Origin: Alphaproteobacteria bacterium
GTDB lineage: Bacteria > Pseudomonadota > Alphaproteobacteria > Rickettsiales > UBA1997
Direction of reading: 5' to 3'
NCBI GenBank assembly: GCA_021151765.1
Contig: JAGKWR010000002.1
Coordinates: forward strand, 59,131-123,130
DNA: 64,000 bases
Below are positions 6,936-51,850 of this stretch, in pieces (the stretch's first letter is position 1; the number at the start of each line of letters is the position of its first letter). The position numbers were made by a program, and so were the translations under genes. The notes beneath the pieces are model-generated. The model ran no database searches. It was not told the origin of the DNA and saw only the letters and a program-made list of their open reading frames with translations.

Positions 6936-6946
6936 AAAATAAATTC

Positions 6947-7013
6947 CTGTCATCCTAAGCGTAGCGCAGGATCTCGTTAGATAAAATATCGGATCTCTTA
7001 CGCCGGATGACAA
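6947..7013. repeat. RPE-like palindromic element, copy B (degenerate)
   Basis: Left arm CTGTCATCCTAAGCGTAGCGCAGGATC and right arm GGATCTCTTACGCCGGATGACAA. The left arm aligns with copy A (CTGTCATCC.AA.CGT.AGCG...ATCTC) in the same orientation. It ends 14 nt before the ATG of the alaS C fragment. Confidence 0.6.
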
Positions 7014-7026
7014 ACTCGTAAAAACT

Positions 7027-8838: not shown

Positions 8839-8840
8839 AA

Positions 8841-10184
8841 ATGACTCGTAAATATTTCGGAACCGACGGTATTCGCGGCACAGCAAATAAATTTCCGATG
8901 ACTGCGGAAATCGCTTTAAAAGTTGGCATGGCCATCGGCGCTAAATTTATTGACGGCGACCATCGCCATCGCGTTGTTATCGGCAAAGATACTCGCCTTT
9001 CAGGATATGTTATTGAACCAGCATTAACCGCCGGATTGGCAGCCGTTGGCATGGATGTGTTTTTGGTCGGCCCTGTGCCAACTCCGGCCGTTTCGATGTT
9101 GACGCGATCAATTCGTGCTGATATCGGCATTATGATTTCAGCATCACACAATCCTTATCACGATAATGGCATCAAAATTTTCACACGTGACGGCCACAAA
9201 CTTAGCGATAAATTGGAACGTGAAATTGAAGATTTGATTGAAGGCGACATCACTCCGCATTTGGCAAAATCTGAAAAATTCGGACGTGTAACTCGCCTTG
9301 ATGATGCTTCTAATCGTTACATCGAGTTCGTTAAAAATTCTTTCCCGAAAGATAAAAATTTGACTGGCATGAAAATTGTCGTCGATTGCGCCAACGGTGC
9401 GGCGTATAAAATTGCTCCGAAAATATTTTGGGAACTTGGCGCCGACGTAATTGACATCGGAACTGAACCCAACGGTTTCAACATTAACGAAAAATGCGGT
9501 TCAACTCATCCGGAAGCTTTATGTCAAAAAGTTATCGAAACTAAAGCTGATATTGGCATTGCTTTGGATGGTGACGCTGATCGTTTGTTGATCGTTGATG
9601 AAAAAGGTCAAGCTATTGATGGTGATCGCTTGATCGCTTTGATTGCCGAAAAATTACACAATGACGGCGCTTTGAAACGCGATACTGTTGTTGTAACTCA
9701 AATGTCCAACTTGGCGCTGGAAAATTATTTAAGTTATATTGGCGTTACGACAATTCGCTCGCAAGTTGGCGATCGTTACGTTTTGGAAGAAATGAAAAAG
9801 AATGGCTGCAACTTTGGCGGCGAACAATCCGGCCATATTGTGTTGTCTGATTACTCAACAACCGGCGATGGTTTGATTGCCGCCTTGCAAGTTTTATCCG
9901 TAATTTGTGACGCAAAAAAACCAGCAAGCGAAGTTTTAAACCTATTCCAGCCTTTCCCGCAATTGTTGAAAAATACTAAGTTTGAAGCTGGTAAAGCTAA
10001 TCCTTTAGAACAGAAATCGGTTCAAGATTTCATTAAATCAAAAGAACAAGAACTAGCGGAAAATGGTAGAATCTTGGTGCGTAAATCAGGAACCGAAAAC
10101 CTAATTCGCGTGATGGTTGAAGGCAAAGATCAACAACAAATCGAAAGAATCGCTGATGAAATTATCGCGGTAGTTAATTCTTAA
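8841..10184 (+). CDS. glmM: phosphoglucosamine mutase
   Basis: 447 aa. YFGTDGIRG, SASHNPYHDNGIK and LDGDADR. Confidence 0.95.
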   Translation: MTRKYFGTDGIRGTANKFPMTAEIALKVGMAIGAKFIDGDHRHRVVIGKDTRLSGYVIEPALTAGLAAVGMDVFLVGPVPTPAVSMLTRSIRADIGIMISASHNPYHDNGIKIFTRDGHKLSDKLEREIEDLIEGDITPHLAKSEKFGRVTRLDDASNRYIEFVKNSFPKDKNLTGMKIVVDCANGAAYKIAPKIFWELGADVIDIGTEPNGFNINEKCGSTHPEALCQKVIETKADIGIALDGDADRLLIVDEKGQAIDGDRLIALIAEKLHNDGALKRDTVVVTQMSNLALENYLSYIGVTTIRSQVGDRYVLEEMKKNGCNFGGEQSGHIVLSDYSTTGDGLIAALQVLSVICDAKKPASEVLNLFQPFPQLLKNTKFEAGKANPLEQKSVQDFIKSKEQELAENGRILVRKSGTENLIRVMVEGKDQQQIERIADEIIAVVNS

Positions 10185-10226
10185 ATAAGCCCTTTTCTTT
10201 ATTAATTAACCAAACCTCCAGACAAC

Positions 10227-10266
10227 AAAAAAGCCGAGCCAGTTTAAAACTGACTCGGCTTTTTTA
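10227..10266. terminator. bidirectional rho-independent terminator
   Basis: AAAAAAGCCGAGCCAGT-TTAAA-ACTGACTCGGCTTTTTT lies between convergent glmM and the pilin-like gene. Confidence 0.75.
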
Positions 10267-10285
10267 ATTCAAAATCTAATACTAA

Positions 10286-11185
10286 TTATGATTGAATTAC
10301 GTTAATCGCATATTTTTTAGACAAATATTTTTCAATTTCTTGACGGTCTGATTTTTTCAAGACGTTATCGAAAACAATAACTTCCATAATTTCGCCTTTT
10401 AAGCCTTGACCAACTCCATCAATTGCACCAACTGAAATTTTTGCTGTTGGAGAAACCCAAGCACTGCTAGCTACTGTTTTACTTCCTGTAGAACCATTCA
10501 TATCAGCCACTCCATTAATATAGCTGAAAACTTCTGGATTAGCCACCAATTGTCCATCAACTGAACTTGGATCAATTGTTAAGCAAATGATGCTAGCACT
10601 TCCTGCGTTTGCAACAATCTTAGCAGAACCAGTTACAGATCCAGCAACACCGTATACTAACACAACATTTCCATTTTCGTTAATTTGTACACCAAATCCA
10701 TCTTGTTCTTGTGTACCGTTATAGAAGATTGTATTTGATTGACTAAGGTCAGTAGTTCTTACAACAAAGAACATAGTGTAAGAGTTAAAAGCAGAATCAA
10801 TAACTCTCGTTCCATTAAAATGTCCAGAATCTGTTGAAACACCAGGAAGTGAATTAGTAGAGGTTGAAGCTACATATTTTGGAGAATCAGACCCGACAAA
10901 GCCATTAGTAATTGAAAGCTGAGGATTTAAATCATTCCAAACTGATAAAACTGATTTATCAGTAGCTTCAGAACTTTTAAAACTACCTTCCATACTAGTT
11001 TCTAACCAAAGGGATAAACCTTTAATACTGTTTACTGGAGAACTTTGAGTCAGAGTTTTAGCAGTAGTGATCTTAGACTGTCTTACAAGACGACTAGCTT
11101 GAGTAACACCGGCAATTAGCACCCCGATAATAAGGATAACAATCGATAGCTCAATCAAAGAAAATGCACTGAGGTTTTTTTTCAT
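10286..11185 (-). CDS. prepilin-type N-terminal signal + LamG (Laminin_G_3-like) domain protein
   Basis: 299 aa. MKKNLSA|FSLIELSIVILIIGVLIAG is a class III signal with Glu at +5 but Ala instead of Gly at -1. LWLETS...SVWNDL near the start and GEIMEVIVFDNVLKKSDRQEIEKYLSKKYAI at the end fit the LamG_3 pattern recalled from memory. Paralog of 38626..40575. Confidence 0.7.
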   Translation of the reverse strand: MKKNLSAFSLIELSIVILIIGVLIAGVTQASRLVRQSKITTAKTLTQSSPVNSIKGLSLWLETSMEGSFKSSEATDKSVLSVWNDLNPQLSITNGFVGSDSPKYVASTSTNSLPGVSTDSGHFNGTRVIDSAFNSYTMFFVVRTTDLSQSNTIFYNGTQEQDGFGVQINENGNVVLVYGVAGSVTGSAKIVANAGSASIICLTIDPSSVDGQLVANPEVFSYINGVADMNGSTGSKTVASSAWVSPTAKISVGAIDGVGQGLKGEIMEVIVFDNVLKKSDRQEIEKYLSKKYAINVIQS

Positions 11186-33582: not shown

Positions 33583-34572
33583 TTATAATCCAACGATTTC
33601 AAAAACTTCTTTTTTAGTTTGAGCGGCAATCGCTCTTGCTTGTTCTCTGCCTTGATCAAGAACTTGACGAACATAAGTTTGGTCTTGCTTGAAGCGTCTT
33701 AAATTTTCTTGAATTGGGCGTAATTTTTCGATCAAACTTTCGGCTAAATCATTTTTAAATTTACCGTTGCCAGCAGTTTCATATTCTTGCGCTAAATCTT
33801 GTGGCGACTTATTGGCCGCCGCCGAGAAAATATTTAACAAGTTGCACATTTCCAAACGCGACTCGTCAAAATTGATTGTTGGCAATGAATCGGTTTTGGC
33901 CTTTTTAATTTTTTTCAAAATCAAATCAGCGTCGTCATTTAAATTGATGCGCGATAAATCTGATTCATCAGACTTGCTCATTTTCTTAGCGCCATCTTGC
34001 AAAGACATGATGCGTTTGACTTCTTTGACAATCATCGGCTCCGGCAATTTAAAGTATTCGCAACCAAAACGACGATTAAAAGCGCCGGCAATGTCGCGAG
34101 TAAGTTCAAGATGCTGTTTTTGATCTTCGCCAACCGGCACAATATCGGCGCGGTAAAGCAAAATGTCGGCAGCCATTAAAACTGGGTAAGAGTAAAGACC
34201 GAGATTTTCATCTTTTGCTGATTTCTCTTTAAACTGCGTCATACGATTGAGCCATCCCATCGGCGTCAAAGTGCCAAAAACCCAGGCCAATTCTGCATGT
34301 TCAGCCACTTCGCTTTGAACAAATAACGTAACTTTTTTGGGATCTAAACCACAAGCCAAGTAAACCGCAGCAGCGTCAATCACGTTTTGACGCAGTTCGC
34401 GCGGATCTTGCGGCAAAGTAATAGCGTGCAAATTCATCACGCCGAACACGCATTTGTGCTGATCTTGCAAATCAATCCAATTTGCAATCGAACCTAAGTA
34501 ATTTCCCAAATGCAGATTTCCTGTCGGCTGAATTCCAGATAAAACAGTTTTCATAATTTGATTTGATTTCAA
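33583..34572 (-). CDS. trpS: tryptophan--tRNA ligase
   Basis: 329 aa. [16 protein letters not shown] (HIGH-type) and KMSKSD. Confidence 0.95.
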
Positions 34573-34591
34573 TTTTGAAGGGCGCGCACTC

Positions 34592-34615
34592 TAATTTCGT
34601 GATCTTGTAAGGCAA
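34592..34615 (+). repeat. direct-repeat copy of the rnpB promoter-proximal / P1 5' strand sequence
   Basis: TAATTTCgtGATCTTGTAAGGCAA here versus TAATTTCcacGATCTTGTAAGGCAA at 37004-37028. Identical 7-nt and 15-nt blocks. The two copies bracket the ankyrin gene 34701..36959. Confidence 0.7.
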
Positions 34616-34700
34616 CAAAGCTTTTTTAAAATCAGTTCAATTTGGTTGAAAAATTGCAATCTCTTTCAAATGGCTTTGCAAATCTATTTCCCGCGACAAA

Positions 34701-36959
34701 TCAGAGGTTCTTTCCTTTAGTATTTTTAGCTGAATTTTCTTCTTGGCTTTGCACTTTTTCACGAAAATCTGCTTTATGATTTTTACGTTCAAAAACTTTT
34801 TCGCCGCTTATTGTTTGAATTTTAAGAGGTTGCGGTGAGCGACTTGGAATTTCGATCTTTTTAGTTTCAAACTCAGTTCTTCCTTGGTCGGCAGATTGCT
34901 GATTTTTCGAAACTTCGTTTTCTTTATTCGGTTTTATCAATTCAGAATCTTGAGTTGGCGACTTTTGCTGCACATTTTCTGGTTGCAGATTTTTTAATTT
35001 TTCTTTCGATCTTTTTTCTTGTTCTGCCATCAAATAACCAATGTCTAAAACTTCAGATTTTGGCAAAACTTTTTGCTCTTTTTCTTGAGAAATTTGTAAC
35101 TGTTTTTGTTGTTGAATTGGCTTTATTGGTGCAAAATCTGTTTTGCTTTTGCTATCCAATACAACGCTGGAAGATTCTATTTTCTTATCGCCAGAATTAT
35201 CAGGAACTTTTATTTTTGATTGTTCCACCACTGTTTTGTTTGCTATTTCAGCTTTCTCAGAAACAGAGAATTTTGGTTCTATTGGTTGTTCTTTTTTAAA
35301 ATCAAATTGCACAGCTTTTTCAACAAGCTGAGGCAAAGTTTTTGATTCCGTGTTTTCTTGAGTTTTAACCTCAGATTTTTGTAATTTCTTACTATCGTTA
35401 CCTAACTCAAATACTTGATCTATTCTAACTTCAAGGCTCTGAAATGAAGTTTTTAAATCTTTAATCGGAGATTTTTTTTCGGATTCGACATCAAATTTTT
35501 TTGAATCTTGACCAACTATAGCATCACGTAAATCCTGAGTTATGTAGTTACCCTTGGCAATTGCTTGCGAAATTGCACTAACTAAAACTTCACGACGTGA
35601 AAACATCGACAACGCACCAATCATTGATGAATCAGCGTTATCAACTGCAATATCAATAATAGTTTTACTACCTTCACGATGATTGACGTTAGCACCACAA
35701 TTAATCAACAAAACTGCAATCAAAGACTGGCCAGATTTAACGGCATTAAACAGTAATTTATTGATATCTTCTTTGCTTAAATCGATTTGCAGCATTTTCT
35801 CCAGTTCAGCTATTGCAGCTGATTTGGTTTGTTTCTGTTCTTTATCGTTTTTTATTTCTGGTTGCGGTTTTTCTGCAACTTTTGACGGCTGAGAATTTTC
35901 AGCTTTTTCAGTATTTTGAATTTGACTTTGTTGCGCGATTTTAGCTAAAGCCTCGCTTAATTCTTGACGATTACTCGATTCTCTTTCTTTCGTGGAATAT
36001 GTTGTAACTTTTTGAGCAGTTTGGCTTTGAGATTGCAAATTTGATGATTTTTGTTCTGCATCACGAGTCTTTTGTTCTTTCTGAGCAGATTCTTTGGCTA
36101 ATTTTTCTCTCGCCAAAGTATATTCGTAAATCGCTTCCATTTCACGATAAATTCGCAACTGTTCTTGCTGCATTCTATCAATCTCAGCTTGCTGACGCTT
36201 CAAAGCTGCTGACTCAGCTTTTCGTTCTTTTGAATCATCATTTTTAGCTTTTTTACGAGCTTTTTCTTCTTCCTCTTTTTGGCGTGATCTTTCTTGATCA
36301 TTTTCTTGTTGTTCTGAATTTATTCCCTTAGCGCCATTTGCTTTCAAAACTTCTACAGCTTTTTGTTCACCAATCATTTCAGCAAAATCACGCGCCGTAA
36401 ATCCGTAAGAATTTTTTTCATTAACGTTAGCTCCGCGATCAATTAAAACCTGCATCTTTTCAATTTTACCGGAAAGCATCGCAGCCGTCAGCGGACTCAA
36501 ACCACATTCACCAAATTTACTTAAATCTTCTGGTTTAAGTTGGCATTTATCGAAGAATTCCATCGATTTTTCCAACGGTTTGCTTGAGGCGCAGGAAATG
36601 ATAAAAATTTCTTTAGCAATAGCTTTTACGCGGTCGCGACGCTGTTTCTCAGCTTCTACTTCTTTTTTAGTTTTGGGATTATTTGAGTTTAAATCTTGAC
36701 CTTCAGAATCTTTATCACGGGCTTTCGCACTTTCTTTTTCCAAAGCTTGCAGCTCTTTTAGATAATCGCGTAATTTTTTTGGCAAAGTTTCAATTAAACT
36801 AGCCGCTTTACGATTTTTTAACTTAGCAATATTTTCAGGTTGGAAGTTTTCATCGCGCAACAAATCTTCAATAAAGTTACGCAAATATTGCTCATCAACT
36901 TCTTCTTCCAAAGGTATGTTAAAATATTCGTCTGAATTTTGATTTGGATTATTTTTCAC
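34701..36959 (-). CDS. ankyrin-repeat protein with long charged coiled-coil / low-complexity regions
   Basis: 752 aa. ANK-like units (GLSPLTAAMLSGKIEKMQVLIDRGANVNEKNSYGFTARDFA; LLFNAVKSGQSLIAVLLINCGANVNH) separated by E/K/Q-rich stretches. Paralog of 40578..41612. Confidence 0.8.
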   Translation of the reverse strand: MKNNPNQNSDEYFNIPLEEEVDEQYLRNFIEDLLRDENFQPENIAKLKNRKAASLIETLPKKLRDYLKELQALEKESAKARDKDSEGQDLNSNNPKTKKEVEAEKQRRDRVKAIAKEIFIISCASSKPLEKSMEFFDKCQLKPEDLSKFGECGLSPLTAAMLSGKIEKMQVLIDRGANVNEKNSYGFTARDFAEMIGEQKAVEVLKANGAKGINSEQQENDQERSRQKEEEEKARKKAKNDDSKERKAESAALKRQQAEIDRMQQEQLRIYREMEAIYEYTLAREKLAKESAQKEQKTRDAEQKSSNLQSQSQTAQKVTTYSTKERESSNRQELSEALAKIAQQSQIQNTEKAENSQPSKVAEKPQPEIKNDKEQKQTKSAAIAELEKMLQIDLSKEDINKLLFNAVKSGQSLIAVLLINCGANVNHREGSKTIIDIAVDNADSSMIGALSMFSRREVLVSAISQAIAKGNYITQDLRDAIVGQDSKKFDVESEKKSPIKDLKTSFQSLEVRIDQVFELGNDSKKLQKSEVKTQENTESKTLPQLVEKAVQFDFKKEQPIEPKFSVSEKAEIANKTVVEQSKIKVPDNSGDKKIESSSVVLDSKSKTDFAPIKPIQQQKQLQISQEKEQKVLPKSEVLDIGYLMAEQEKRSKEKLKNLQPENVQQKSPTQDSELIKPNKENEVSKNQQSADQGRTEFETKKIEIPSRSPQPLKIQTISGEKVFERKNHKADFREKVQSQEENSAKNTKGKNL

Positions 36960-37018
36960 GGTTAATCTTTAAAACTTAATTTGCTTTGCAAAGCGACACT
37001 TTGTAATTTCCACGATCT

Positions 37019-37514
37019 TGTAAGGCAAGTAGATGATCGCTGGTTTTAGTTTGGTAACAAATTTGAAAATCAGAGGAAAGTCCGGACTCCTCGTCAGAAA
37101 CGATACCAGCTAACGGCTGGCCACGCAGCTTGAATAAACTAGAGCGGCTGAGGGAAAGTATCACAGAGAATATACCACCAACCATCATTGACTAGCTTGA
37201 TTTTATGCTCTCTTAATCGGAAGTGTTTAGTCGCTACCTTGATGAATTGGCCAGGGTGAAAACGCGAGGTAAGAGCTCACGCGCTTTCGTGGTAACACGA
37301 ATTTGGAAAAACCCTATCGGGAGCAAGACCAAATAGGAATGGCAGTTTAGCAATAAACAATGTTCTGACGCATGCCGTTCGGGTAGGTTGCTTGAGGTCA
37401 ACAGCGATGTTGATCCTAGATGAATGATCGTCCCGCTTACGCTTCGCTACAGCGCGGCTTTGCCCGTGTTGTTGAAGTGTTTGCGGACAGAATCCGGCTT
37501 ATTCTTGTCTTACA
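37019..37514 (+). ncRNA. rnpB: RNase P RNA, bacterial type A
   Basis: GAGGAAAGTCCGGACTCC (37073-37090), CCAGGGTGAAAACGCGAGGTAAGAGCTCACGCG, GGGAGCAAGACCAAATAGG, GGGTAGGTTGCTTGAGG, CCTAGATGAATGATCGTCC and GACAGAATCCGGCTTAT align block by block with E. coli M1 RNA. P1 pairs TGTAAGGCAAG (37019-37029) with CTTGTCTTACA (37504-37514). Ends are accurate to about 5 nt. Confidence 0.9.
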
Positions 37515-37690
37515 TTTTAAATTCCGGTGAGAGCCGGATTTTATTTATTTCTTCTGATCGCAAAACGATCAGTGGCCGGCTTATTCTTGTCTTACATTTT
37601 AAATTTCGGTGCGAGCCGGATTTTATTTATTTCTTCTGATCGCAACACGATCAGTTGGCCGGCTTATTCTTGTTTTACATTCATTAAATT
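37494..37690 (+). repeat. tandem repeat (about 82-83 bp, about 2.4 copies) of the rnpB 3' end plus terminator hairpins
   Basis: Units start at 37494, 37576 and 37659 (partial). Each begins CCGGCTTATTCTTGTCTTACA (the rnpB P1 3' strand). The two full units (1 and 2) continue with hairpin TCCGGTGAGAGCCGGA + T-rich tract and hairpin CTGATCGCAAAACGATCAG. Units 1 and 2 differ by 3 substitutions and 1 indel. Confidence 0.85.
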
Positions 37691-37777
37691 TAAAACTGCG
37701 TTTTAAATTTAGGTTAATTTCGAGTTGCTACAGGCGAAGTAAATTCGCCTATCCACAACAAAGTTTATTTTTTTAAG

Positions 37778-38563
37778 ATGCTTACTACCAACGAAATTCG
37801 TACAAAATTCCTCGATTACTTTGCCAAAAATGGCCATGAAATTATTGCGTCTAGTCCTTTGATTCCGCATAACGACCCTACTTTGATGTTTACCAACGCG
37901 GGGATGAATCAGTTCAAAAATTATTTTACTGGCGTGGAAGTTCCGAAATTCAAACGCGCAGCGACTTCGCAAAAATGTGTCCGTGCTGGTGGTAAACACA
38001 ACGATCTGGACAATGTTGGCTACACTGCCCGTCATCACACTTTTTTTGAAATGTTAGGTAATTTTTCTTTTGGCGATTATTTCAAAGAAGAAGCGATTTT
38101 TTATGCGTGGAATTTGTTGACGAAAGAATTCGGTATCAACCCACAAAAGCTTTTAGTTACTGTTTATCACAACGATGATGAAGCGGCAAATTTTTGGAAA
38201 AAAATTGCTGGTTTAAATGATGATAAAATTATTCGTATCGCAACTGACGACAACTTCTGGTCGATGGGCGACACTGGTCCTTGCGGCCCGTGCTCAGAAA
38301 TTTTCTTCGATCATGGCGATAAAATTTTCGGCGGCCCTCCAGGCAGCAAGGATGAAAATGGTGATCGTTTTATCGAAATTTGGAATTTGGTTTTCATGCA
38401 ATTTGAAAAACACAAAGACGGCAAAATGATTCCATTGCCAAAACCTTGTATTGATACTGGCATGGGCTTGGAACGTGTCACTTCAGTGATGCAAGGCGTT
38501 CATGATAATTACGAAACTGACAGCTTCAAAAAATTGATCGGCGAAATTCAAAAAATTGTGTAA
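37778..38563 (+). CDS. alaS: alanine--tRNA ligase, N-terminal catalytic-core fragment (split gene)
   Basis: 261 aa. [101 protein letters not shown] and DTGMGLERV. It ends ...[13 protein letters not shown], about where E. coli AlaRS reads ...LFRTLIQAVAKVT. Confidence 0.9.
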
Positions 38564-38625: not shown

Positions 38626-40575
38626 ATGAAAAAACCAAATATCAAAGCCTTCTCTCTGGTTGAAATCACGATCGTAATTTTAGTGATTGGTGTTATTATT
38701 GCTGGTGTGTTGGCGAGTAATGTTTTGATTAAGAAGTTTCGTATAGCTACGGCGCAGAATTTGACGCAGTCGTCACCGATTCAAGGTATTGCAGATTCGG
38801 TGTTGTGGTTGGAAACTAGTTTGGACAAGAGTTTTAAGGCTTCAGAGAGTGAGGATAAGTCGAAGTTGAGTGTGTGGTATGATGTTCGTGAGTCTATGTC
38901 TAAGAATAATGCTGTTCAAAGTGATGCTGCTTATGCTCCGAGTTATTCCAATAGTATTAATTATGTGCAAGCGGTGAAGTTTGATGGCACGAATGGTTAT
39001 TTTACGGTGGATGGCTCAGTTTTGAACAATACGAATTACACGATTTTTGTTCTAGAGAGGAGAGAGAGTAACAAGAGCGGTAATTATTTTATTGGTGATG
39101 CTTCATCTGAGAATCAATCAACTACGAATAAGAATTTAGTTTTAGGTTATAGTGCTGATGGGACGGTGATTCATTCGCAATCTAGTGATAATTCTTACAG
39201 TTCGAGTATTTCGACTTATGCGTCCTCAACTGGCAAGGCGCGAGTTTTTAGTTTTGTTCATGATAGTTCTGTGGGTAAGAAGACTTATATTAACGGACTT
39301 CTAGCTGCGACTTCGACTGATACTAATAATTTATCTGGGATGAACACTTTGACGATTGGTAAGTCTTATCAGGGTCAGATTGGCGAGATTGTGATGTTTG
39401 CTCGTGCTTTGACTGATGAAGAGAGAGAATCGGTTGAAGATTATTTGGGTAAGAAATGGAACAGCACAATTTTACGTTCTATTGGTGGATCTGCTTCATC
39501 TGGCGGTATTGGTGGAAGTTGTGTTGGCGGAACTGTCAGCGATTCGGGATGTTTGATTTCTTGTACAGTAACTGCTGCTAATGGGATCACAGCTACCACA
39601 GTTCAAGACGGATCTGGATCTTTAACTTGTAACGCTGCAGCAAATTTCACTGGTTCTTTGCCTTACTCCTGTGTCAACGGTGTCTTCCAATATACAGACA
39701 AAACAAGCTGCTCCTGCGCAACTGGTTATAATCTAACGGGCTCGACTTGTACACCAATTAACCCAAGTTGTTCAGGTGGCACCGAATCTACCACAACTAT
39801 TTCAGGAATTACTTACAAACTGCATACTTTTACATCTTCTGGAAATCTTGTTTGTACAGCTGGTGGCCGTAGTCAGGTATTAGTTGTAGCTGGTGGCGGC
39901 GGCGGTACATTTTTTGGTGGTGGTGGTGGCGGCGGCGGTGTCGTATTTAAGTCTAGCCATACTCTTACAGTCAAAACTTATAGTGTTACAGTTGGTAGTG
40001 GTGGTATTGCTAATACTTCAGCTACAACCACTCCAGTTAATGGTGGCAACTCAGTTTTTGATACTATTACCACTTATGGTGGTGGTGGCGGTGGAAATAA
40101 CTCTCTAGCAGCTGGAAAAGCTGGTGGCTCTGGTGGCGGAGCAAACAGGGGAGATGTTCCGAGCAGAGTTGGTGGTGCAGTTATTACAAATATCGCAGAC
40201 GGAGGAATTTCTTACGGAAACGTTGGCGGTGCCACAGCAAATATTACAGGTTGGGGTGGTGCTGGTGGAGGTGGAGGAGCTGGATCAGCAGGTGGTCAAG
40301 GAGGTTCTAACGGCACAGCAGCTGGAGAGGTTGGTGGTAGTGGTGGTAATGGCGTATCAATAAGTATAACAGGAACACCAACTTATTATGCCGGTGGCGG
40401 TGGTGGTGCTGTTCAGGGAAACTTAACCCCATCACCTGGTGGTTTAGGTGGAGGTGGAGCTGGAGGTCGAAATCCAGTCGCCGGAACAGATGGTTATGGT
40501 GGTGGTGGTGGTGGCTCAACTAACATACCTAAGAGAGGTGGTTCTGGTGTCGTAATTATTCGTTACGCTAAATAA
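38626..40575 (+). CDS. prepilin-type signal + LamG domain + Cys module + glycine-rich C-terminal domain protein
   Basis: 649 aa. MKKPNIKA|FSLVEITIVILVIGVIIAG. LamG_3-like region (LWLETS...SVWYDV...GQIGEIVMFARALTDEERESVEDYLGKKWN, about residues 55-280). Cys module at residues 299-382. Glycine-rich domain from ITYKLHTFTSSGNLVC...VLVVAGGGGG to GGSGVVIIRYAK. Confidence 0.75.
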   Translation: MKKPNIKAFSLVEITIVILVIGVIIAGVLASNVLIKKFRIATAQNLTQSSPIQGIADSVLWLETSLDKSFKASESEDKSKLSVWYDVRESMSKNNAVQSDAAYAPSYSNSINYVQAVKFDGTNGYFTVDGSVLNNTNYTIFVLERRESNKSGNYFIGDASSENQSTTNKNLVLGYSADGTVIHSQSSDNSYSSSISTYASSTGKARVFSFVHDSSVGKKTYINGLLAATSTDTNNLSGMNTLTIGKSYQGQIGEIVMFARALTDEERESVEDYLGKKWNSTILRSIGGSASSGGIGGSCVGGTVSDSGCLISCTVTAANGITATTVQDGSGSLTCNAAANFTGSLPYSCVNGVFQYTDKTSCSCATGYNLTGSTCTPINPSCSGGTESTTTISGITYKLHTFTSSGNLVCTAGGRSQVLVVAGGGGGTFFGGGGGGGGVVFKSSHTLTVKTYSVTVGSGGIANTSATTTPVNGGNSVFDTITTYGGGGGGNNSLAAGKAGGSGGGANRGDVPSRVGGAVITNIADGGISYGNVGGATANITGWGGAGGGGGAGSAGGQGGSNGTAAGEVGGSGGNGVSISITGTPTYYAGGGGGAVQGNLTPSPGGLGGGGAGGRNPVAGTDGYGGGGGGSTNIPKRGGSGVVIIRYAK

Positions 40576-40577
40576 AT

Positions 40578-41612
40578 TTAACGTCCCATTCCACCACCTT
40601 GGGAATTATTGCTGTGGTGAAATGGATTATTTACGTGAGATTGCAGCGATCCGGCATTGTCAATCATCTGCCCCATGACTTCACTAACTCCTCGTACGTT
40701 CTCTTTCGTAATCACACTAGCGCGATCAGCAACTATTGCTGTGATTGCCCAATTACCAGTTTTAGCAGCAGTTTGTAAAATTGTTTCTCCGCCTAAATTG
40801 GCGTTCACATTCGCTCCATCTAAAACTAAACTATTAACTGAAGTAATATCGCCACTTAAAATGGCATCGTGCAATTGTTCTTCTTTAGTTTGCGAATTTT
40901 GCGGTGATGTTTGGTTATCGTTTATCTTACCAAATAAATTCTGCGAACTGCTTTTAGCGCCATTTTCTCGCAATACTGAAGTTAAATCACGATCAATTTT
41001 CAAAATCGCAATATCCAAAGCTGACAAGCCTTCATTATTCAAAACATTGAGCTGCACACCTTCTGTAATTAGAAATTCCATCATCCATTTTTTAACTCCA
41101 ATTTTAACAGCAATATGAGCAGAATTATCACCATTTGGCGATCTAAAATTTACGTTTGCTCCGAGCATAATCAACCATTGCAAAAACTTTTTACCGCGAT
41201 TGCCCAACAAAGCTGCGCTTAAAGCGTTGAATTTACCTTTGCGATTAAATTTGTTGAGATCGGCTACATTAAACTCACAAACATCAAAAAAATTAGTAAT
41301 CTCTTCAATATCAAGGTTTGAAGCACAAGCTGTAACAAATAATTCTTGAGCAATTTCCCGCAAATTTTTTTCAAAATTCGCGCCTTCTTTTTGCAATTCT
41401 TTTTTAAGCTGCTTCAGCTGATGTTGTAGTTCTTCCAACCAAGCTTTTTGATCTAAGTTACTACCTAAATATTTGGCACCAGCTAATTTCTCTGCAAAAT
41501 TATTAACATAGTCGCGATCAAATTTATCGGCTTTGTTCTGCTTAGATTTTGGCTCATTTTTTTGCGAAGAATCTTTTACAAACCAAGAAAAAACTCTCAC
41601 AAAGAAAGCCAT
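40578..41612 (-). CDS. ankyrin-repeat protein
   Basis: 344 aa. ANK units (GDNSAHIAVKIGVKKWMMEFLITEGVQLNVLNNEGLSALDIA; LHDAILSGDITSVNSLVLDGANVNANLGGETILQTAAKTG). The N-terminal module is shared with 34701..36959. Confidence 0.8.
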   Translation of the reverse strand: MAFFVRVFSWFVKDSSQKNEPKSKQNKADKFDRDYVNNFAEKLAGAKYLGSNLDQKAWLEELQHQLKQLKKELQKEGANFEKNLREIAQELFVTACASNLDIEEITNFFDVCEFNVADLNKFNRKGKFNALSAALLGNRGKKFLQWLIMLGANVNFRSPNGDNSAHIAVKIGVKKWMMEFLITEGVQLNVLNNEGLSALDIAILKIDRDLTSVLRENGAKSSSQNLFGKINDNQTSPQNSQTKEEQLHDAILSGDITSVNSLVLDGANVNANLGGETILQTAAKTGNWAITAIVADRASVITKENVRGVSEVMGQMIDNAGSLQSHVNNPFHHSNNSQGGGMGR

Positions 41613-45967: not shown

Positions 45968-48900
45968 ATGAATTTCAAAATCCCTAAATTGCACAAGAAC
46001 AAAATTCTTCAAGCGAGTATATCGTTGCTTGTGTTTGCTGGGATATTTCTGATATTTAATACTATTTCTCCTCCTAAAGATCTGCAAAGTGCGGTTTCTT
46101 CCTGCGTTTCTTATACTGGCGCTAATTCCGGAGTTAATTGCGCCTACCCTCCTTGTGCTTTATTAACTTCAGGTGCTAATCCTGGGGTAAATTGTTTACC
46201 TAATTGTGCAAATTTAACTGCTGCAACTTCCATAACTGGTAACTCAACTCCAGTTGGCGGTGTAAATTGTTATTATCTTGATAAACCTCTGTGTACTGCA
46301 ACATCAAGATCCGTTTCGGTTATGGATATAAACATTCCTAATATCATGACCCCCCCTACAGCACCGGATCCTAGAACTAATTGTGCAGACTTAATTGATC
46401 TACCTCTTTGTGAACAAGTTACTCTTTCAACCGCGAATCCAACAGCCAATTGTGTAAAAGAATGTGGTGCAAACGATAATGTTGATACAGCAACGTCCGG
46501 ACATAATGTAACGTGTGTAAGATTTTGTGATAACATGCCAAATATAAATGGCACTAGTACCAAAATGACAGCTGTTCCTAGAACTTCTTCTTCCGTTGGT
46601 AATTGCGTTCCACGCCAATGTCATCAATTAGCAATCGGTACAAAACCAAACGGATCTAATTGCTCTTTGAATAGTTGTAATAAATTGTCTCCGGATGAAA
46701 TGAATCAGAGCAGAATACAAAATGAAGATGATACTAATTTTGCCCAATATTGCGATGGCAGCACCGTTAAATGTTATGAGTTTTCAGCAAAACAACTTCC
46801 CTTTACTAGATATCGACTAAACAACACAATGTGTCAGATTCATAAATGTAAACCAGCAACCACTTCTTGCGGCAGAATTGACAGTTGTACTGGATTTACT
46901 TTGTACAGTGCAACTACTGATGATACTTTGAATATCTCATGTAACACCACTTCTGCTTTAGATAACGGATCAACTCAGCAATATAGCAGTCTCTATTCAA
47001 AATATATTAATGTTGGTCTTCCAATCTCTGACACTTCTTTTTGTCAAGCAGTTGTATGTAAACCAACTTACTATCTTCCTTACCCTTGTTCGGCTGATGC
47101 TAGTGGAAATCTAACAGTTAGAGATACAAATTGTGATGCTTCAGGTGATGGTTCAATATGCGGTACTGTCCAATGTAGTAAGAATGATGAATGTAAAAAA
47201 GATCTAGGATTTTGTTACAAAACAATAGACTGCAATTTATCTAGCAACTCTACCAACTCTGTTTGTATTGCAGCAAATGGTTCTGACGTTAGTAATGATG
47301 GCAATTTTGAAGATGATACAGATTCATCATTTCATAGACCAGTTCCACTTAATAAAGCTTATAAAAATAACGATCCATCACAGGGATATAGAATTTCTGG
47401 AACCTGCTACACAATAAATCAAATGAAATCACAATCTGATGATAGTAGCGATGATCATAAATGGGGAGTAGATCCAGTAATTCCAATGTCTTGGCTCTTT
47501 GGTGCAAAAGATATAAGATTAGGCTATACTCATTCACAACTATCACCTGATCGTACAAGATCTCCTAAAGCTTGTGAACCGTCAAAGGTTGGTTCAAGAG
47601 GAACTGGTTATTCTTATCTGTGTGGCAATAAATCAAGTCTGTATAAACCAATAAGCGAGAAAAGCGCTTTTTACAAAGGATACGTATCTACAGAATTTTT
47701 GGATAATGGTAATACTATTGCCAAACTAAATGTTTGTTTACGATTCAAAAATACTTTAAGACCTGATGATAATACAATTGATGACTCAGAAACATGTGGC
47801 TCGAGAGAATGCGCCATAAGCTATTTTTCAAGTAATCCAATTTCTCAAGCTTGCGGTTTTGATTATTGTCGCACTCTAACAGTAAATTCAGTCAATCCGA
47901 AAGAATGTGCAATGAGTGGAGACTTATTTGATGTTACTCAAGCTAGCAACTCTAATAATGATAACAAAGCTTGTAGCGAAATAGTAGACAGTAACCTCAG
48001 ACTACGAGCTGTACAATATGGTAACAGAATATGCGCCTTTGTTGATTCATCGACTCAGTTTGCTTATAATAAAATGTTTTTTGATGAAAATGTTAAACTT
48101 GATGATGGAGTCACTTGCGTTAGCGGAACTTATAACCAAAAAACCAAAAAATGTGAAAATGGCAAAGATACTAATGATAAACCGGAAGAAGCAACACACT
48201 GGCGTACTATATTAAAAGTGAAATATACCGGTTCAAACACTGATCTGAATGGTTTTTATGATCGTAACGGCAAATTTATCAAAGCCCAAGAATGTGTTCA
48301 AGTGCCTCTCAGCGATTCACCACCAAACTTATACAATTTAGCTTCTTTACAAAATTCATCAAGAATGTTCACACCACCTTTATTCATAAGAGCAATAAAT
48401 TCAAAACGTGAAGGAGTACAAGTTTCATCAGATGCTTCCGGCACAACAGATTTCTTAGAACCTGAAGTAGTAGTTCAGTTCGGCACTTCCAATAAAACTC
48501 TTAGTATTGGCACTGGTTTAAGTGGCTATGAATCAACTCTTGATTCAAAAAGTTATGCTATGGACTCTACGGCTATAAAAACTGTAATGAATGGAATCAC
48601 TTACTCAGCTAATATTCTAATTAAAAAAGAATTTAATTCTGCAATCAATCAACCAACAGTTTGTTTATATCAAAGATTTAATTCAGATAACGGATATTAT
48701 GATATTAAAATTGGTTGTGCTAATAGATCGCTTCCAGAAATAGATAACGCCAACACTACTTCTCAAAGCTCTATTGGTGTTCGTAAAATTAGTATAACTG
48801 CGGATACTAATGGAGTTAATACTCTAGATAAAACTACTCAAAAATACGGAGATGCTACCCTGATATTTAAATATTGTGGCGATGCGAGCTGTTCAAATTC

Positions 48901-51850
48901 GAAATCTATTAATTTCAAAAATATTGATCCATCACAACCAACTTGTTTAGGAACCCAAGAAAGTGATATGGAAAAATACAAAGTTTGTGTGCAACGCGAT
49001 GAGTGTTCTCAATTGTGGAAAGAATGCATGGAGAACGAAATATCAATCCAAAATAATGGTGAAACCGAGTCAACTGCTGCAGAAAGATTAAGATGTCAAA
49101 AGCTGGCTGTTAATTGTAACAACAAAAAAGGAATTACTTCACAAAGCAGTAACTTCGTTGATCAAGTTAACTCAACAATAGCAGATACTGATGCTTATGG
49201 TTGGTTTAATGAGATGTGTATAGTTTCTGGCTTTTCTGATAAATTGTCACAAAAGCTGATTTACCGTAAAATAACTTCAGCAAGCAATGTAAAAGGTAAA
49301 TGCCTTGCTGTTCCGAAAAGCTCACTATCTTCAGTAAATAGCGCAAATTTACAAACTCTTGCCAATTCTTGCCCAAGAGGTGGTGATGGAGTTAATTGTA
49401 TATGTATTGATGCGACTACTGCAATAAGTGGCTATACAATAGATAATCCAACTCCTCATGAAGCTGGTCTTTGTATTTCAATTCCAACGCCAAAAGTTTG
49501 TAGTTCTGTAAATTATGGCGGAGATAGTTATAACTCATCTTCTCTCGGAGGTTCAGCATATACTAGCTCCGGAGGAACCGTTAACACACAGCATGCGAAT
49601 AGATCAACTTCTAACGTTGGAGCATCAGTTGGCGGAGGCTTTGGTGAATTCCCAACTTCAGTTGTTGGTATGAATAATATAAAAGGAACTTGTAACGGCT
49701 TCTGGCAATCACAATCAACTAGTAGTGGTGTTATAAGTCCGAAAATGAATTGCTTAGACAATACTGCAAGTAGCACAAATGGTAAGTGGAGCGGTCTAAT
49801 TACTAATTCAGAATCAGCAGCCTGCGTTCGTTTTTCTTCGCCTGCGATAACTACCGGAAATAATACAAATGATTCTGATGCCTCTGGCAATTATCCAAGT
49901 CAAACTTACACAAAATCAACCGAAACAAACGATGTAGCAAGCAATACCTTCGGAGCCGTTACACTTGGAACTAAAGGAGAATCAAATGGCTACGCAATTT
50001 GGCCATCATTCACTAAAACTAACGATTTTCTACAAACTTACACCGCTACTTCTTGTATAGCAGGATATCGCACAAATTCACTCCCGACAAGAGGAGTTGA
50101 TCAACTTGGCAATCCAAAAAGCGTTAATAGTAGTTGCACCAGAATTACCTGTCCTGCAATTAATCCTTCAACTAATCCTATCGACTGGACGGCTTGGGCT
50201 GCATCAAAAGGCGCTTCATTTGGAGTTGAAGTTGATGCAATGGGTCGCCCACTTACTACAACCTACACAACTCCAGCCTCACGCAGCATTTCTTCAGTTA
50301 CACCAGGATCAACCAGAAAAGGTTATTGTAACACATCTCTTGGTTTCTTCCAAGCAGTTGGCAATTCACAACCAGAAAGAGATTGTTTATATGATGGAAC
50401 TTGGGGACCAGTCAGAAATCCATGCGTGAGTTCTTGTAATGCAGTAACAAATCCTGGATCAAGCGATGGTTTTGCAACATGGCCAGCTTCAAATAATCTC
50501 ACTGCTGGTCAAAGTGCTGTCGTATCTGGAACCTGCCAATCAGGTTATTCTCCTTACCCTTATCCAAGATTTAAAGATGATACTGGTACAGCAATTACCC
50601 CAATCCCAAGCGCAACATCTGGCTCACCTGAAACAAGTCCGAAAAGAACTTGTCAATATTCTCAAGTTGTTGGTGGTGGAAGCGCTAATACCTGGACCAA
50701 TGTTTCTTCAACATGTGTAAATCAATGTCCTGGATATGATATAGATACTAGAGAAGGAGTTGGTAAAACTTCTCATAATACTGCACAATTTGGATCAATT
50801 GAAATCAGATGGCCTTCAACCTCTACTGGAGCGACAATAACAAGAACTTTTGGTTATAACTCAGCTGGAACCGAAGTCGGATTCAATAACCTAACTTCGC
50901 AAACTGCTTCTGATTATTCACAAGCTGGAAGAACTAACGGTTATTTCATTGTTTCCAGAACCTGCAATTCAAACTATACTTGGAGTGCTCCAGTTGTTCA
51001 ATGCGCTACTAATGGCGGAACTGTTAATAACTCAATTATAGGTTCTAGCGGCAATAACACTACAGTGAATGCCGGCTCATCTGTTCAAGTAAATTCTTGC
51101 ACAAGTAACTTCGGCACTCCTTCTATGCCTTCTTACCAATGCAAATCCTACAATGGTAGTACAGACTCTTATGGCTATCAAAACATCGATCAATATTACT
51201 ACAGCCTAGTTTCAGGATCAGCTTGTGCAGCAATCACATGCAACTTAACAAATAACACATCTTATGGAGCAAGTGGTGGTTCCGTTTATACAGGAACTAC
51301 AAGAAATATTAACGTTGGAGAAGTAGTATCACTATCTTGTAAAAGTGGTTTTGGTAAAAATATTCCATCCCCTGCAATCACGAATGGTAACGATAGTAGT
51401 TGCGGCAGAACAGCTAACGATAGAACTTCTCAAAGTCCTACAGCAACTTGTACAAATAATAACGGCGTGGGAACAATCGTTGTAAACAATGACTGCTCCG
51501 CATGTAGAAGTTGCAGTGCTAGCCAATATTCTTATATCAACTCATCTAATGTTAACTACACAGGACTTAACTGTTATGTTGGCTGCAGTGGCAATACTGA
51601 CCAATGCTTTGTAATTAATCACTACAACAGATACGCAACAGTTCCAGCATCTGGATCAGTAAACGCATATGACTATTCTTGCGGTAACGCTGGAGACAAT
51701 GTTACAACTGTAACTTTTGATAACTGTGCTGCAAACACAACTTGCTCTAAAATCACGAATGGCGGCAAATGTGGTAGCAACACGGTGAGATACACGTGCG
51801 TCGACGGAGACTATCAGCTCGATTACTCAACTTGTGGATGGAGTTACTAA
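45968..51850 (+). CDS. giant cysteine-rich secreted/surface protein with Sushi/CCP-like modules
   Basis: 1960 aa. N-terminal hydrophobic anchor or signal ILQASISLLVFAGIFLIFNTI. Roughly 100 Cys by hand count. N/S/T/G-rich. Residues about 45-240 carry about 8 short (G/T)xNC-x(2-7)-C units. Residues about 1190-1843 carry about 6-7 modules of the form C...hhhxxC-x-(S/N)-G-(Y/F)...C...(W)...C. Confidence 0.7.
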   Translation: MNFKIPKLHKNKILQASISLLVFAGIFLIFNTISPPKDLQSAVSSCVSYTGANSGVNCAYPPCALLTSGANPGVNCLPNCANLTAATSITGNSTPVGGVNCYYLDKPLCTATSRSVSVMDINIPNIMTPPTAPDPRTNCADLIDLPLCEQVTLSTANPTANCVKECGANDNVDTATSGHNVTCVRFCDNMPNINGTSTKMTAVPRTSSSVGNCVPRQCHQLAIGTKPNGSNCSLNSCNKLSPDEMNQSRIQNEDDTNFAQYCDGSTVKCYEFSAKQLPFTRYRLNNTMCQIHKCKPATTSCGRIDSCTGFTLYSATTDDTLNISCNTTSALDNGSTQQYSSLYSKYINVGLPISDTSFCQAVVCKPTYYLPYPCSADASGNLTVRDTNCDASGDGSICGTVQCSKNDECKKDLGFCYKTIDCNLSSNSTNSVCIAANGSDVSNDGNFEDDTDSSFHRPVPLNKAYKNNDPSQGYRISGTCYTINQMKSQSDDSSDDHKWGVDPVIPMSWLFGAKDIRLGYTHSQLSPDRTRSPKACEPSKVGSRGTGYSYLCGNKSSLYKPISEKSAFYKGYVSTEFLDNGNTIAKLNVCLRFKNTLRPDDNTIDDSETCGSRECAISYFSSNPISQACGFDYCRTLTVNSVNPKECAMSGDLFDVTQASNSNNDNKACSEIVDSNLRLRAVQYGNRICAFVDSSTQFAYNKMFFDENVKLDDGVTCVSGTYNQKTKKCENGKDTNDKPEEATHWRTILKVKYTGSNTDLNGFYDRNGKFIKAQECVQVPLSDSPPNLYNLASLQNSSRMFTPPLFIRAINSKREGVQVSSDASGTTDFLEPEVVVQFGTSNKTLSIGTGLSGYESTLDSKSYAMDSTAIKTVMNGITYSANILIKKEFNSAINQPTVCLYQRFNSDNGYYDIKIGCANRSLPEIDNANTTSQSSIGVRKISITADTNGVNTLDKTTQKYGDATLIFKYCGDASCSNSKSINFKNIDPSQPTCLGTQESDMEKYKVCVQRDECSQLWKECMENEISIQNNGETESTAAERLRCQKLAVNCNNKKGITSQSSNFVDQVNSTIADTDAYGWFNEMCIVSGFSDKLSQKLIYRKITSASNVKGKCLAVPKSSLSSVNSANLQTLANSCPRGGDGVNCICIDATTAISGYTIDNPTPHEAGLCISIPTPKVCSSVNYGGDSYNSSSLGGSAYTSSGGTVNTQHANRSTSNVGASVGGGFGEFPTSVVGMNNIKGTCNGFWQSQSTSSGVISPKMNCLDNTASSTNGKWSGLITNSESAACVRFSSPAITTGNNTNDSDASGNYPSQTYTKSTETNDVASNTFGAVTLGTKGESNGYAIWPSFTKTNDFLQTYTATSCIAGYRTNSLPTRGVDQLGNPKSVNSSCTRITCPAINPSTNPIDWTAWAASKGASFGVEVDAMGRPLTTTYTTPASRSISSVTPGSTRKGYCNTSLGFFQAVGNSQPERDCLYDGTWGPVRNPCVSSCNAVTNPGSSDGFATWPASNNLTAGQSAVVSGTCQSGYSPYPYPRFKDDTGTAITPIPSATSGSPETSPKRTCQYSQVVGGGSANTWTNVSSTCVNQCPGYDIDTREGVGKTSHNTAQFGSIEIRWPSTSTGATITRTFGYNSAGTEVGFNNLTSQTASDYSQAGRTNGYFIVSRTCNSNYTWSAPVVQCATNGGTVNNSIIGSSGNNTTVNAGSSVQVNSCTSNFGTPSMPSYQCKSYNGSTDSYGYQNIDQYYYSLVSGSACAAITCNLTNNTSYGASGGSVYTGTTRNINVGEVVSLSCKSGFGKNIPSPAITNGNDSSCGRTANDRTSQSPTATCTNNNGVGTIVVNNDCSACRSCSASQYSYINSSNVNYTGLNCYVGCSGNTDQCFVINHYNRYATVPASGSVNAYDYSCGNAGDNVTTVTFDNCAANTTCSKITNGGKCGSNTVRYTCVDGDYQLDYSTCGWSY

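Follow-up and report, generated by a model that had tools for sequence, protein, structure and literature searches.

We analyzed a 64,000-nucleotide stretch of DNA from an uncultured alphaproteobacterium (contig JAGKWR010000002.1; the whole stretch is called the window below), in which an ankyrin-repeat gene, here named ank, is located between trpS and rnpB, the genes for tryptophanyl-tRNA synthetase and RNase P RNA, and is flanked by a short direct repeat. Our analysis indicates that this gene probably came in as a repeat-flanked insertion into the overlapping divergent promoters of trpS and rnpB, that the left copy of the repeat was probably kept as the trpS promoter, and that later losses of ank probably followed.

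The left block, TAATTTCgtGATCTTGTAAGGCAA at positions 34592-34615, and the right block, TAATTTCcacGATCTTGTAAGGCAA at 37004-37028, enclose the 752-residue ankyrin open reading frame (ORF). As a preliminary description of this DNA had reported, the two blocks, of 24 and 25 nt, contain an identical 7-mer and an identical 15-mer, with gt in between on the left and cac on the right. The sequence GATCTTGTAAGGCAA occurs exactly twice in the window, even when two mismatches are allowed, and shuffled sequences give an expectation of 0.14. The P1 helix of the RNase P RNA can be extended to position 37019, with TGTAAGGCAAG (37019-37029) base-pairing with CTTGTCTTACA at 37504-37514. This pairing places the first 10 nt of rnpB inside the right copy, as proposed previously, together with the probable -10 box of the gene.

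The same description saw a weaker similarity continuing on the left side. We examined it by local alignment, using 2000 dinucleotide shuffles and 1246 real windows as background. The pair of AAATCAGAGG matches at 34698-34707 and 37067-37076 does exist, but it is the only best match between 34616-34715 and 37029-37095, and 6.7% of the dinucleotide shuffles scored as high, as did 3.5% of the 100-nt windows of real sequence. Nor did the flanks upstream of the two copies align significantly within the window (p = 0.08). Similarity past the 25-mer inside the window is thus at chance level, and we dropped the extended similarity (34616-34715 against rnpB +11 to +77, and the upstream flanks; p = 0.03 to 0.08) as evidence. 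The 85-nt segment that separates the ank stop codon from the left copy (34616-34700, minus strand) contains the TTTGGTTGAAAAATTG and AAATCAGAGG matches and showed no significant similarity to rnpB +11 to +58. It is confined to the window strain and its relative with 99% TrpS identity (window, L001, and L082/L089). In L083, L084, L085, L090, and L088, the left copy is directly followed by other, unrelated sequence, with the ank stop codon only about 10 nt away in L083 and L084. The best argument against a fortuitous repeat is instead its recurrence, since the two-copy arrangement is found in every ank-bearing relative.

Those relatives were collected by scanning a genome collection for TrpS, from contigs encoding Ank homologues, and by a metagenome scan with the repeat, which together yielded 16 related loci (designated by L numbers). 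They form a clade of uncultured alphaproteobacteria whose closest named TrpS neighbors, at about 55% identity, are Rickettsiales- and Caedimonas-like metagenome-assembled genomes. TrpS orthologues with 80 to 99% identity adjoin the locus in all relatives. Eight lineages are occupied (window, L082, L083, L084, L085, L090, L088, and L096), and each contains the block twice. All of them except L096 carry an orthologous ank between trpS and rnpB, with identities ranging from 89% to 28%. The insert of L096 contains a gene for a protein related to lactate dehydrogenase (LDH), a hybrid histidine kinase gene, and a stub of the ank 5′ end.

Nine relatives have empty sites (L002, L091, L092, L093, L094, L095, L097, L098, and L099), where trpS adjoins rnpB with a single copy of the block and without ank. 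They fall into two types. In L091, L093, L099, and L098, the flank of a left copy (…GAATTTGGGGGTTGCGCCAAAGAGCGCGGCAC…) comes after the trpS start, and then one core and rnpB (left-type empty sites). L098 is left-type upstream of the core and has right-type GTGGATGG downstream, so that it looks like a recombinant of the two copies. In L092, L094, L095, L097, and L002, the single promoter reads TTGCTTTGAAAGGCGCGGCAC-TTTAATTTC, with CTTAATTTC in L002. It combines a -35 region as in right copies with a G+C-rich spacer as in left copies (intermediate empty sites). An extra C (TTTGCAA) is present in the right copy of every occupied lineage except L088 (seven of eight) but is missing from the intermediate promoters. 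L002 is the closest relative in the genome collection; its trpS is directly divergent from rnpB without ank, and its single promoter has the spacer GGCGCGGCAC of the window's left copy and the -35 region ATTGCTTTG of the right copy. The latter motif is common to the single-copy promoters of all five intermediate lineages.

The relatives thus bear out the earlier proposal that ank was inserted between trpS and rnpB, because those without the gene keep a single copy of the block. The direct divergence of trpS from rnpB that this proposal calls for was seen in ank-free L002, L091, L093, L098, and L099. Among the relatives examined, there was no case of ank without the repeat, all eight occupied lineages having two copies, and no case of two adjacent promoter copies without cargo. 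In the genome-collection outgroups L003 to L007, L009, and L010, there is no rnpB within 10 kb of trpS, which indicates that the adjacency of the two genes is specific to this clade.

Some inserts and spacers of the relatives have features of their own. In L096, positions 6634-10408 encode an LDH- or malate dehydrogenase-like protein of 402 aa and a hybrid histidine kinase/response regulator of 752 aa. The ank 5′ stub (MFDEEKID…) adjoins the right copy, and the two copies are identical across 34 nt. The cargo of this lineage appears to have been replaced, and its repeat was possibly homogenized by gene conversion. We considered whether that cargo is the same mobile two-gene module as the window's 428-aa and 767-aa genes downstream of nadA and rejected this, as the two kinases share only 29% identity and the remaining pair of proteins shows no relationship. 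The trpS-rnpB spacers of intermediate lineages (L092, about 1040-1330; L094, about 2715-2880; L095; L097, about 8395-8690) are filled by long, nearly perfect inverted repeats, which read CATTGTCACCCTGAGC…GTCGAAGGGTGATTC … GAATCACCCTTCGAC…GCTCAGGGTGACAATG, and short tandem motifs. These inverted repeats look like a miniature inverted-repeat transposable element or another palindromic element.

The alignment across lineages also revealed the true extent of the duplication. Relative to the rnpB start, the homology of both copies to the single-copy promoter extends from about -38 (TTGC…) to +10. The left copies of relatives end at +10 to +17, near the ank stop codon, with extensions to +14 to +17 in L084, L085/L090, L096, and L088 (GGCAAGTGG, GGCAAGCAGA, GGCAAGTGGAGG). 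The longest perfect repeat, in L096, measures 34 nt. Homology of the left copy from -38 to about +17 in the less eroded lineages implies an ancestral duplication of about 55 nt, of which the 24/25-mer of the window would be the remainder after erosion of the left copy's edges. The real extension of the repeat is therefore upstream, into the rnpB promoter to about -38, and it is visible only through the relatives.

The left copy had been taken for a decaying relic. Its conservation speaks against this view. Across six independent ank lineages, the mean pairwise identity of the left 25-nt block is 85%, on par with that of the right block (82%), which is constrained by rnpB. The flanks of the left block are less conserved, with 49% identity in the 30 nt downstream and 61% in the 30 nt upstream. 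In the window, the left copy (34577-34615) shows homology to the spacer of the rnpB promoter, to its -10 box (TAATTT, 34592-34597), and to rnpB +1 to +10 (TGTAAGGCAA, 34606-34615). The minus strand of every left or single copy reads TTGCCT, a spacer of 16 nt (17 in L088), and TAnnGT, the latter in the variants TAGAGT, TATAGT, TAATGT, TAAGGT, and TAAAGT, and this motif is located 30 to 45 nt upstream of the trpS start. We thus propose that the left copy probably carries the trpS promoter, which in the window would consist of a -35 hexamer TTGCCT at 34615-34610, a 16-nt spacer, and a -10 hexamer TAGAGT at 34593-34588 (minus strand). Such a role can account for the conservation of the copy. In the window and in L083, the homology to rnpB ends exactly at AGGCAA, the complement of the TTGCCT hexamer. 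If the trpS promoter reaches into rnpB +1 to +10, then an insertion that spares both genes needs the block on both sides.

The right copy (36981-37028) is a putative bidirectional promoter region, as judged by the conserved position of its elements. On the plus strand, the predicted rnpB promoter comprises TTGCTT at 36981-36986, a 17-nt spacer, and TAATTT at 37004-37009, followed by rnpB +1 to +10 at 37019-37028. On the minus strand, TTGCCT at 37028-37023, a 17-nt spacer, and TACAAA at 37005-37000 make up a candidate ank promoter. The corresponding TTGCCT-16/17-TAnnnn motif in the right copy would drive ank in all occupied lineages except L088. The distance of the ank start codon to this promoter is 22 to 25 nt, and the trpS start is 23 nt from its promoter in L002. 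The ank gene appears to have acquired the former leader of trpS.

We addressed the direction of change with a neighbor-joining tree of concatenated TrpS, NadA, and the N-terminal half of AlaS (AlaS-N). The left-type empty lineages L091, L093, and L099 are sister to the window, L082, and L083 with 100% bootstrap, and L084, L085/L090/L096, and L088 are outside this pair. The fourth left-type lineage, L098, groups with L085, L090, and L096 (74%). The intermediate lineages form a group of their own (79% in the TrpS tree). Because the left-type empty sites are nested in ank-bearing clades and the promoter of the other empty sites is intermediate between the copies, insertion first and losses later is the most economical order. 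The most economical history would thus start from an empty site of the intermediate type, followed by one insertion with duplication and at least two precise losses that gave rise to the left-type sites.

The ank gene itself is old. It extends from 36959 to 34701 on the minus strand with a GTG start codon. The protein matches Ank_2 with 33.1 bits (cutoff 27.3) at residues 148 to 211, as well as Ank_3, Ank_4, and Ank above their cutoffs, and contains abundant low-complexity K/E/Q sequence. The orthologues found at this position are 89, 58, 54, 38, and 28% identical to it. Between the window and L082, the synonymous divergence (dS) is 0.098 for ank and 0.111 for trpS, and this similarity of values indicates an old, vertically inherited gene. 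The ratio of nonsynonymous to synonymous divergence (dN/dS) is 0.34 for ank and 0.02 to 0.05 for the neighboring genes, and the GC content of ank (0.31 to 0.38) is inside the range of the window. These sequence comparisons indicate that ank is a functional, fast-evolving gene that has traveled with its neighbors and is no recent import.

From these data we derive the following scenario. In the ancestor, trpS and rnpB would have been arranged back to back, about 55 to 60 nt apart, with overlapping promoters, the putative trpS -35 hexamer (TTGCCT) being inside the first 10 transcribed bases of rnpB. The ankyrin-repeat gene would then have been inserted between them, and the block of about 55 nt from rnpB -38 to about +17 duplicated simultaneously. 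The right copy would start the working rnpB, its opposite strand driving ank. The left copy would have stayed with trpS, held by selection as the carrier of the trpS promoter, and in the lineage of the window its dispensable edges would have eroded, leaving the 24-nt block. The copies would still have been long enough to recombine, and at least two lineages may in this way have lost ank precisely, with the left-type flank joined to rnpB. The duplication may have originated from a circle that carried the block and integrated in the Campbell manner, whether by site-specific or by homologous recombination, or from a small tandem duplication of the promoter that was occupied later.

Several observations weigh against this scenario. 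The proposed promoters match 8 of 12 positions of the sigma-70-type consensus and are below the threshold of 9 of a generic promoter scan; that scan found no more sites than in shuffles, and the proposed promoters were not among them. A trpS promoter with a short leader could in principle fit into the left-type empty sites without overlapping rnpB. The deep nodes of the tree have bootstraps of 2 to 39% and stay poorly supported when the tree is rooted with the Rickettsiales- and Caedimonas-like TrpS outgroups (about 55% identity), which leaves parsimony and the intermediate promoter as the basis for the order of events. In addition, ank-bearing L088 groups weakly with the intermediate empty lineages. 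Co-occurring strains seem to exchange DNA in this region, and some empty sites could therefore be imported alleles and not deletions in place. Between the window and L082, dS is 0.44 for alaS-N and 0.11 for trpS; ank, trpS, and nadA have values of 0.10 to 0.17, which suggests a recombination breakpoint near rnpB. A PemK gene downstream of rnpB is also patchily distributed. Finally, gene conversion and not selection could be the reason why the two copies of L096 are identical.

The preliminary description had favored a different origin, which amounts to a site-specific integrative element that used the 5′ end of rnpB as its target and brought its own promoter and first bases, keeping the gene intact. 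The repeats would then be attL and attR, and the 2.4-kb insert a stripped remnant. Direct repeats that consist of a structured RNA gene's end, combined with unoccupied sites in nine relatives, are the classic signature of such elements, the repeat amounting to 24/25 nt in the window and to 34 perfect or about 55 homologous nt in relatives. The left-type empty sites are what excision would be expected to leave. Moreover, the neighborhood is variable, PemK coming and going and the L096 cargo being replaced, and a second repeat-flanked insertion at the 3′ end of rnpB, described below, has the geometry of islands in tRNA and transfer-messenger RNA (tmRNA) genes. However, the integrase or recombinase that should be linked to the repeats did not turn up. 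No recombinase, integrase, or transposase family of Pfam (E ≤ 1e-5) was detected in the 46 of 52 window ORFs of at least 120 aa that were searched, and none is encoded between the repeats of the eight occupied lineages, whose cargo is one ank or, in L096, the LDH-like and histidine kinase genes. The metagenome scan gave no circle- or attP-type junction, all 11 matches to the repeat being trpS/rnpB loci. A scan of viral contigs for an attP-like copy gave 0 matches to the 3′ core and 16 matches to the 5′ 16-mer, all by chance with random flanks. In the window and the related loci, there are no dispersed copies of the ank-flanking segments elsewhere. The insertion is ancient and vertically inherited, with no trace of recent or horizontal acquisition, and we found no mention of rnpB as an attachment site in the literature searched. 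The probably primitive promoter is intermediate between the two copies, which a duplication of resident DNA would explain at least as well as a replacement segment borne by an element. What remains of the island analogy is thus the repeats of an RNA gene end, the empty sites, and the precise loss, but not membership in that class of elements. We regard an integrative element as unlikely. We would give still less credence to the stronger notion that this site represents the first element to integrate into the promoter-proximal end of an RNA gene, bringing a replacement promoter and 5′ strand, with ank as a reversible cassette. Insertion of a transposon or insertion sequence (IS) was considered and rejected. 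The target-site duplications of these elements are short (2 to 14 bp) and come with terminal inverted repeats and a transposase; here, the repeat measures 25 to 55 nt, the insert ends have no convincing terminal inverted repeats, and no transposase was found in the 46 window ORFs searched.

The repeat could also have arisen in two steps and without a mobile element, a small tandem duplication of about 55 nt uncoupling the two promoters and ank, one of many ankyrin genes in these genomes, later landing by illegitimate recombination at the harmless junction of the copies. This lineage does make small tandem duplications at rnpB (the 82-nt unit described below, present 2.4 times), both copies go back to a promoter of the kind seen in the intermediate empty lineages, and several other ank genes nearby, at 40578-41612 in the window and in relatives, represent donor paralogues. 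We nevertheless find this sequence of events rather improbable, as no relative has tandem promoter copies without cargo and the match between the start-to-promoter distances of ank and of trpS in L002 would be odd for a random landing. Far less plausible is a functionless left copy whose conservation stems from repeated overwriting by the right copy through gene conversion. Such an event would fit L096, whose copies share lineage-specific bases (GCACC...CGTGATC) across 34 nt but differ at two positions in its sisters L085 and L090. In the window, L083, L084, and L085, however, the copies differ in or beside the block (gt versus cac, TAATTG versus TAATTT, CTCG versus CGCG), yet the 15-mer is intact. 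Conversion tracts would not end exactly at the AGGCAA boundary, and blocks of 15 to 25 nt are poor substrates for homologous recombination. As for a chance match in AT-rich intergenic DNA, its one argument is that only the 25-mer is significant within the window. We give it practically no weight, given the 0.14 expected matches to the 15-mer even with two mismatches and the recurrence of the two-copy arrangement in eight lineages with Ank proteins down to 28% identity.

The insertion of ank with retention of both promoters, our preferred reading, can be compared with known systems. Islands and prophages inserted by tyrosine integrases at the 3′ ends of tRNA and tmRNA genes are similar in the repeats of an RNA gene end, the intact gene, the empty sites, and the single copy left after loss. 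In contrast, the insertion here affects the 5′ end of the gene and takes in its promoter, the cargo is one chromosomal-looking gene with a long vertical inheritance, and the “displaced” copy is conserved. Overlapping divergent promoters and promoter duplications have a similarly compact, shared control. Here the right copy would serve rnpB and ank and the left one trpS, and both would be conserved because each keeps a job. Unlike in usual divergent promoters, one of the promoters appears to enter the transcribed 5′ end of an essential ribozyme gene. A fragment of an RNA gene would as a result have been duplicated and preserved as promoter DNA. The left-type empty sites (L091, L093, L099, and L098), which probably arose at least twice, are the expected product of deletion between short direct repeats, RecA dependent or by slippage. 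The repeats here are 25 to 55 nt long, however, the events are deduced from phylogeny, and allele import is a possible alternative. Finally, the fast evolution, low complexity, few ANK repeats, multiple copies, and variable regions are reminiscent of the ankyrin effectors of Wolbachia, Rickettsia, and Holospora-like bacteria. Many ank genes of Wolbachia are on prophage WO, whereas ank of the window is on no recognizable mobile element and its position is fixed across the clade.

This locus would thus represent an effector-type gene inserted into the compact control region of two essential genes, neither of which was broken, and a fragment of a ribozyme gene conserved as promoter DNA after duplication of overlapping promoters. 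It also suggests that an effector gene flanked by short repeats can become a presence/absence polymorphism in close, co-occurring strains. For annotation, it is a warning that a conserved fragment of an RNA gene beside a protein gene is not necessarily a decaying att scar. Should a recombinase linked to the repeats be found, rnpB would join the tRNA and tmRNA genes as an integration target, and the first to be used at its 5′ end.

The 3′ end of rnpB also bears a repeat-flanked insertion. The gene encodes a full-length type A RNase P RNA at 37019-37516 on the plus strand (RF00010, Rfam coordinates 37021-37516), with a score of 231.5 bits for a gathering score of 100 and coverage of model positions 1 to 367. 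Full-length RF00010 matches above the gathering score were also obtained in L002, L082, L083, L085, and L088. The last 21 to 26 nt of rnpB, CCGGCTTATTCTTGTCTTACA, which correspond to the 3′ strands of P4 and P1, are present three times at 37494-37691 (plus strand) in 2.4 tandem units with a period of 82 nt. Each unit contains CCGGCTTATTCTTGTCTTACA, a terminator-like hairpin, and a second hairpin (CTGATCG…CGATCAG), the stem of which is kept with different bases in L083 (CTGGT…ACCAG). There are two 3′-end copies in L082 and L083 and a single one in L091, L093, L099, L085, L088, and L002. The flank after the third copy of the window is nearly base for base the one directly following the single 3′ end of L091, which identifies the distal copy (37659-37681) as the native rnpB 3′ end. 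This native copy has one mismatch in the window and carries a mismatch in L083 as well. By this comparison, the 61-nt unit with the terminator-like hairpin is inserted DNA, and no other copy of it was found in the window or the related loci. Although the insert is tiny, the site has the canonical geometry of islands in tRNA and tmRNA genes, its displaced native end being on the distal side and in decay. A common origin of the 5′ and 3′ repeats in one event was rejected, as the 3′ end is single in L085 and L088, both of which carry ank with the 5′ repeat. The 3′ insertion thus appears to be younger than the ank event and independent of it.

On the other side of the locus, trpS occupies 33583-34554 on the minus strand. 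Its translation gives a 323-aa protein from MKTVLSG, and the exact protein is encoded on a Logan contig, where it matches PF00579. Downstream of rnpB, a gene for a PemK/MazF-family toxin is present between rnpB and alaS-N in L082 (4921-5304), L093, and L099. It directly follows the rnpB 3′ end in the last two and is missing from the window, L083, and L091. This pattern cuts across the phylogeny and suggests repeated gain and loss or allelic exchange among strains.

The alaS-N gene follows rnpB in all relatives with contigs that are long enough. In the window, it is located at 37778-38563 on the plus strand and encodes the 261-aa N-terminal half of alanyl-tRNA synthetase (AlaRS), with a match to positions 1 to 257 of the 552 of the Pfam profile tRNA-synt_2c. 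The enzyme is encoded by two genes that are 30 kb apart, the other piece, of 603 aa (7027-8838), containing tRNA-synt_2c positions 269 to 549 and the tRNA_SAD and DHHA1 domains. The stand-alone N half is found with 84 to 98% identity in 14 of the 16 relatives, those whose contigs reach that far, and is followed by unrelated genes. It appears to represent a conserved split AlaRS in bacteria. Nanoarchaeum is known to have a split AlaRS, and no bacterial case emerged from a quick search of the literature.

Farther downstream, the region 38626-41612 encodes a glycine-rich protein of 649 aa (Pfam Gly_rich_2, with TGG-rich repeats at 39915-40514), followed by a second ankyrin gene at 40578-41612 on the minus strand. 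A 1960-aa ORF at 45968-51850 has no Pfam match. At the corresponding place, the relatives have other Ank or Sel1 genes. The rnpB neighborhood as a whole appears to collect effector-like genes.

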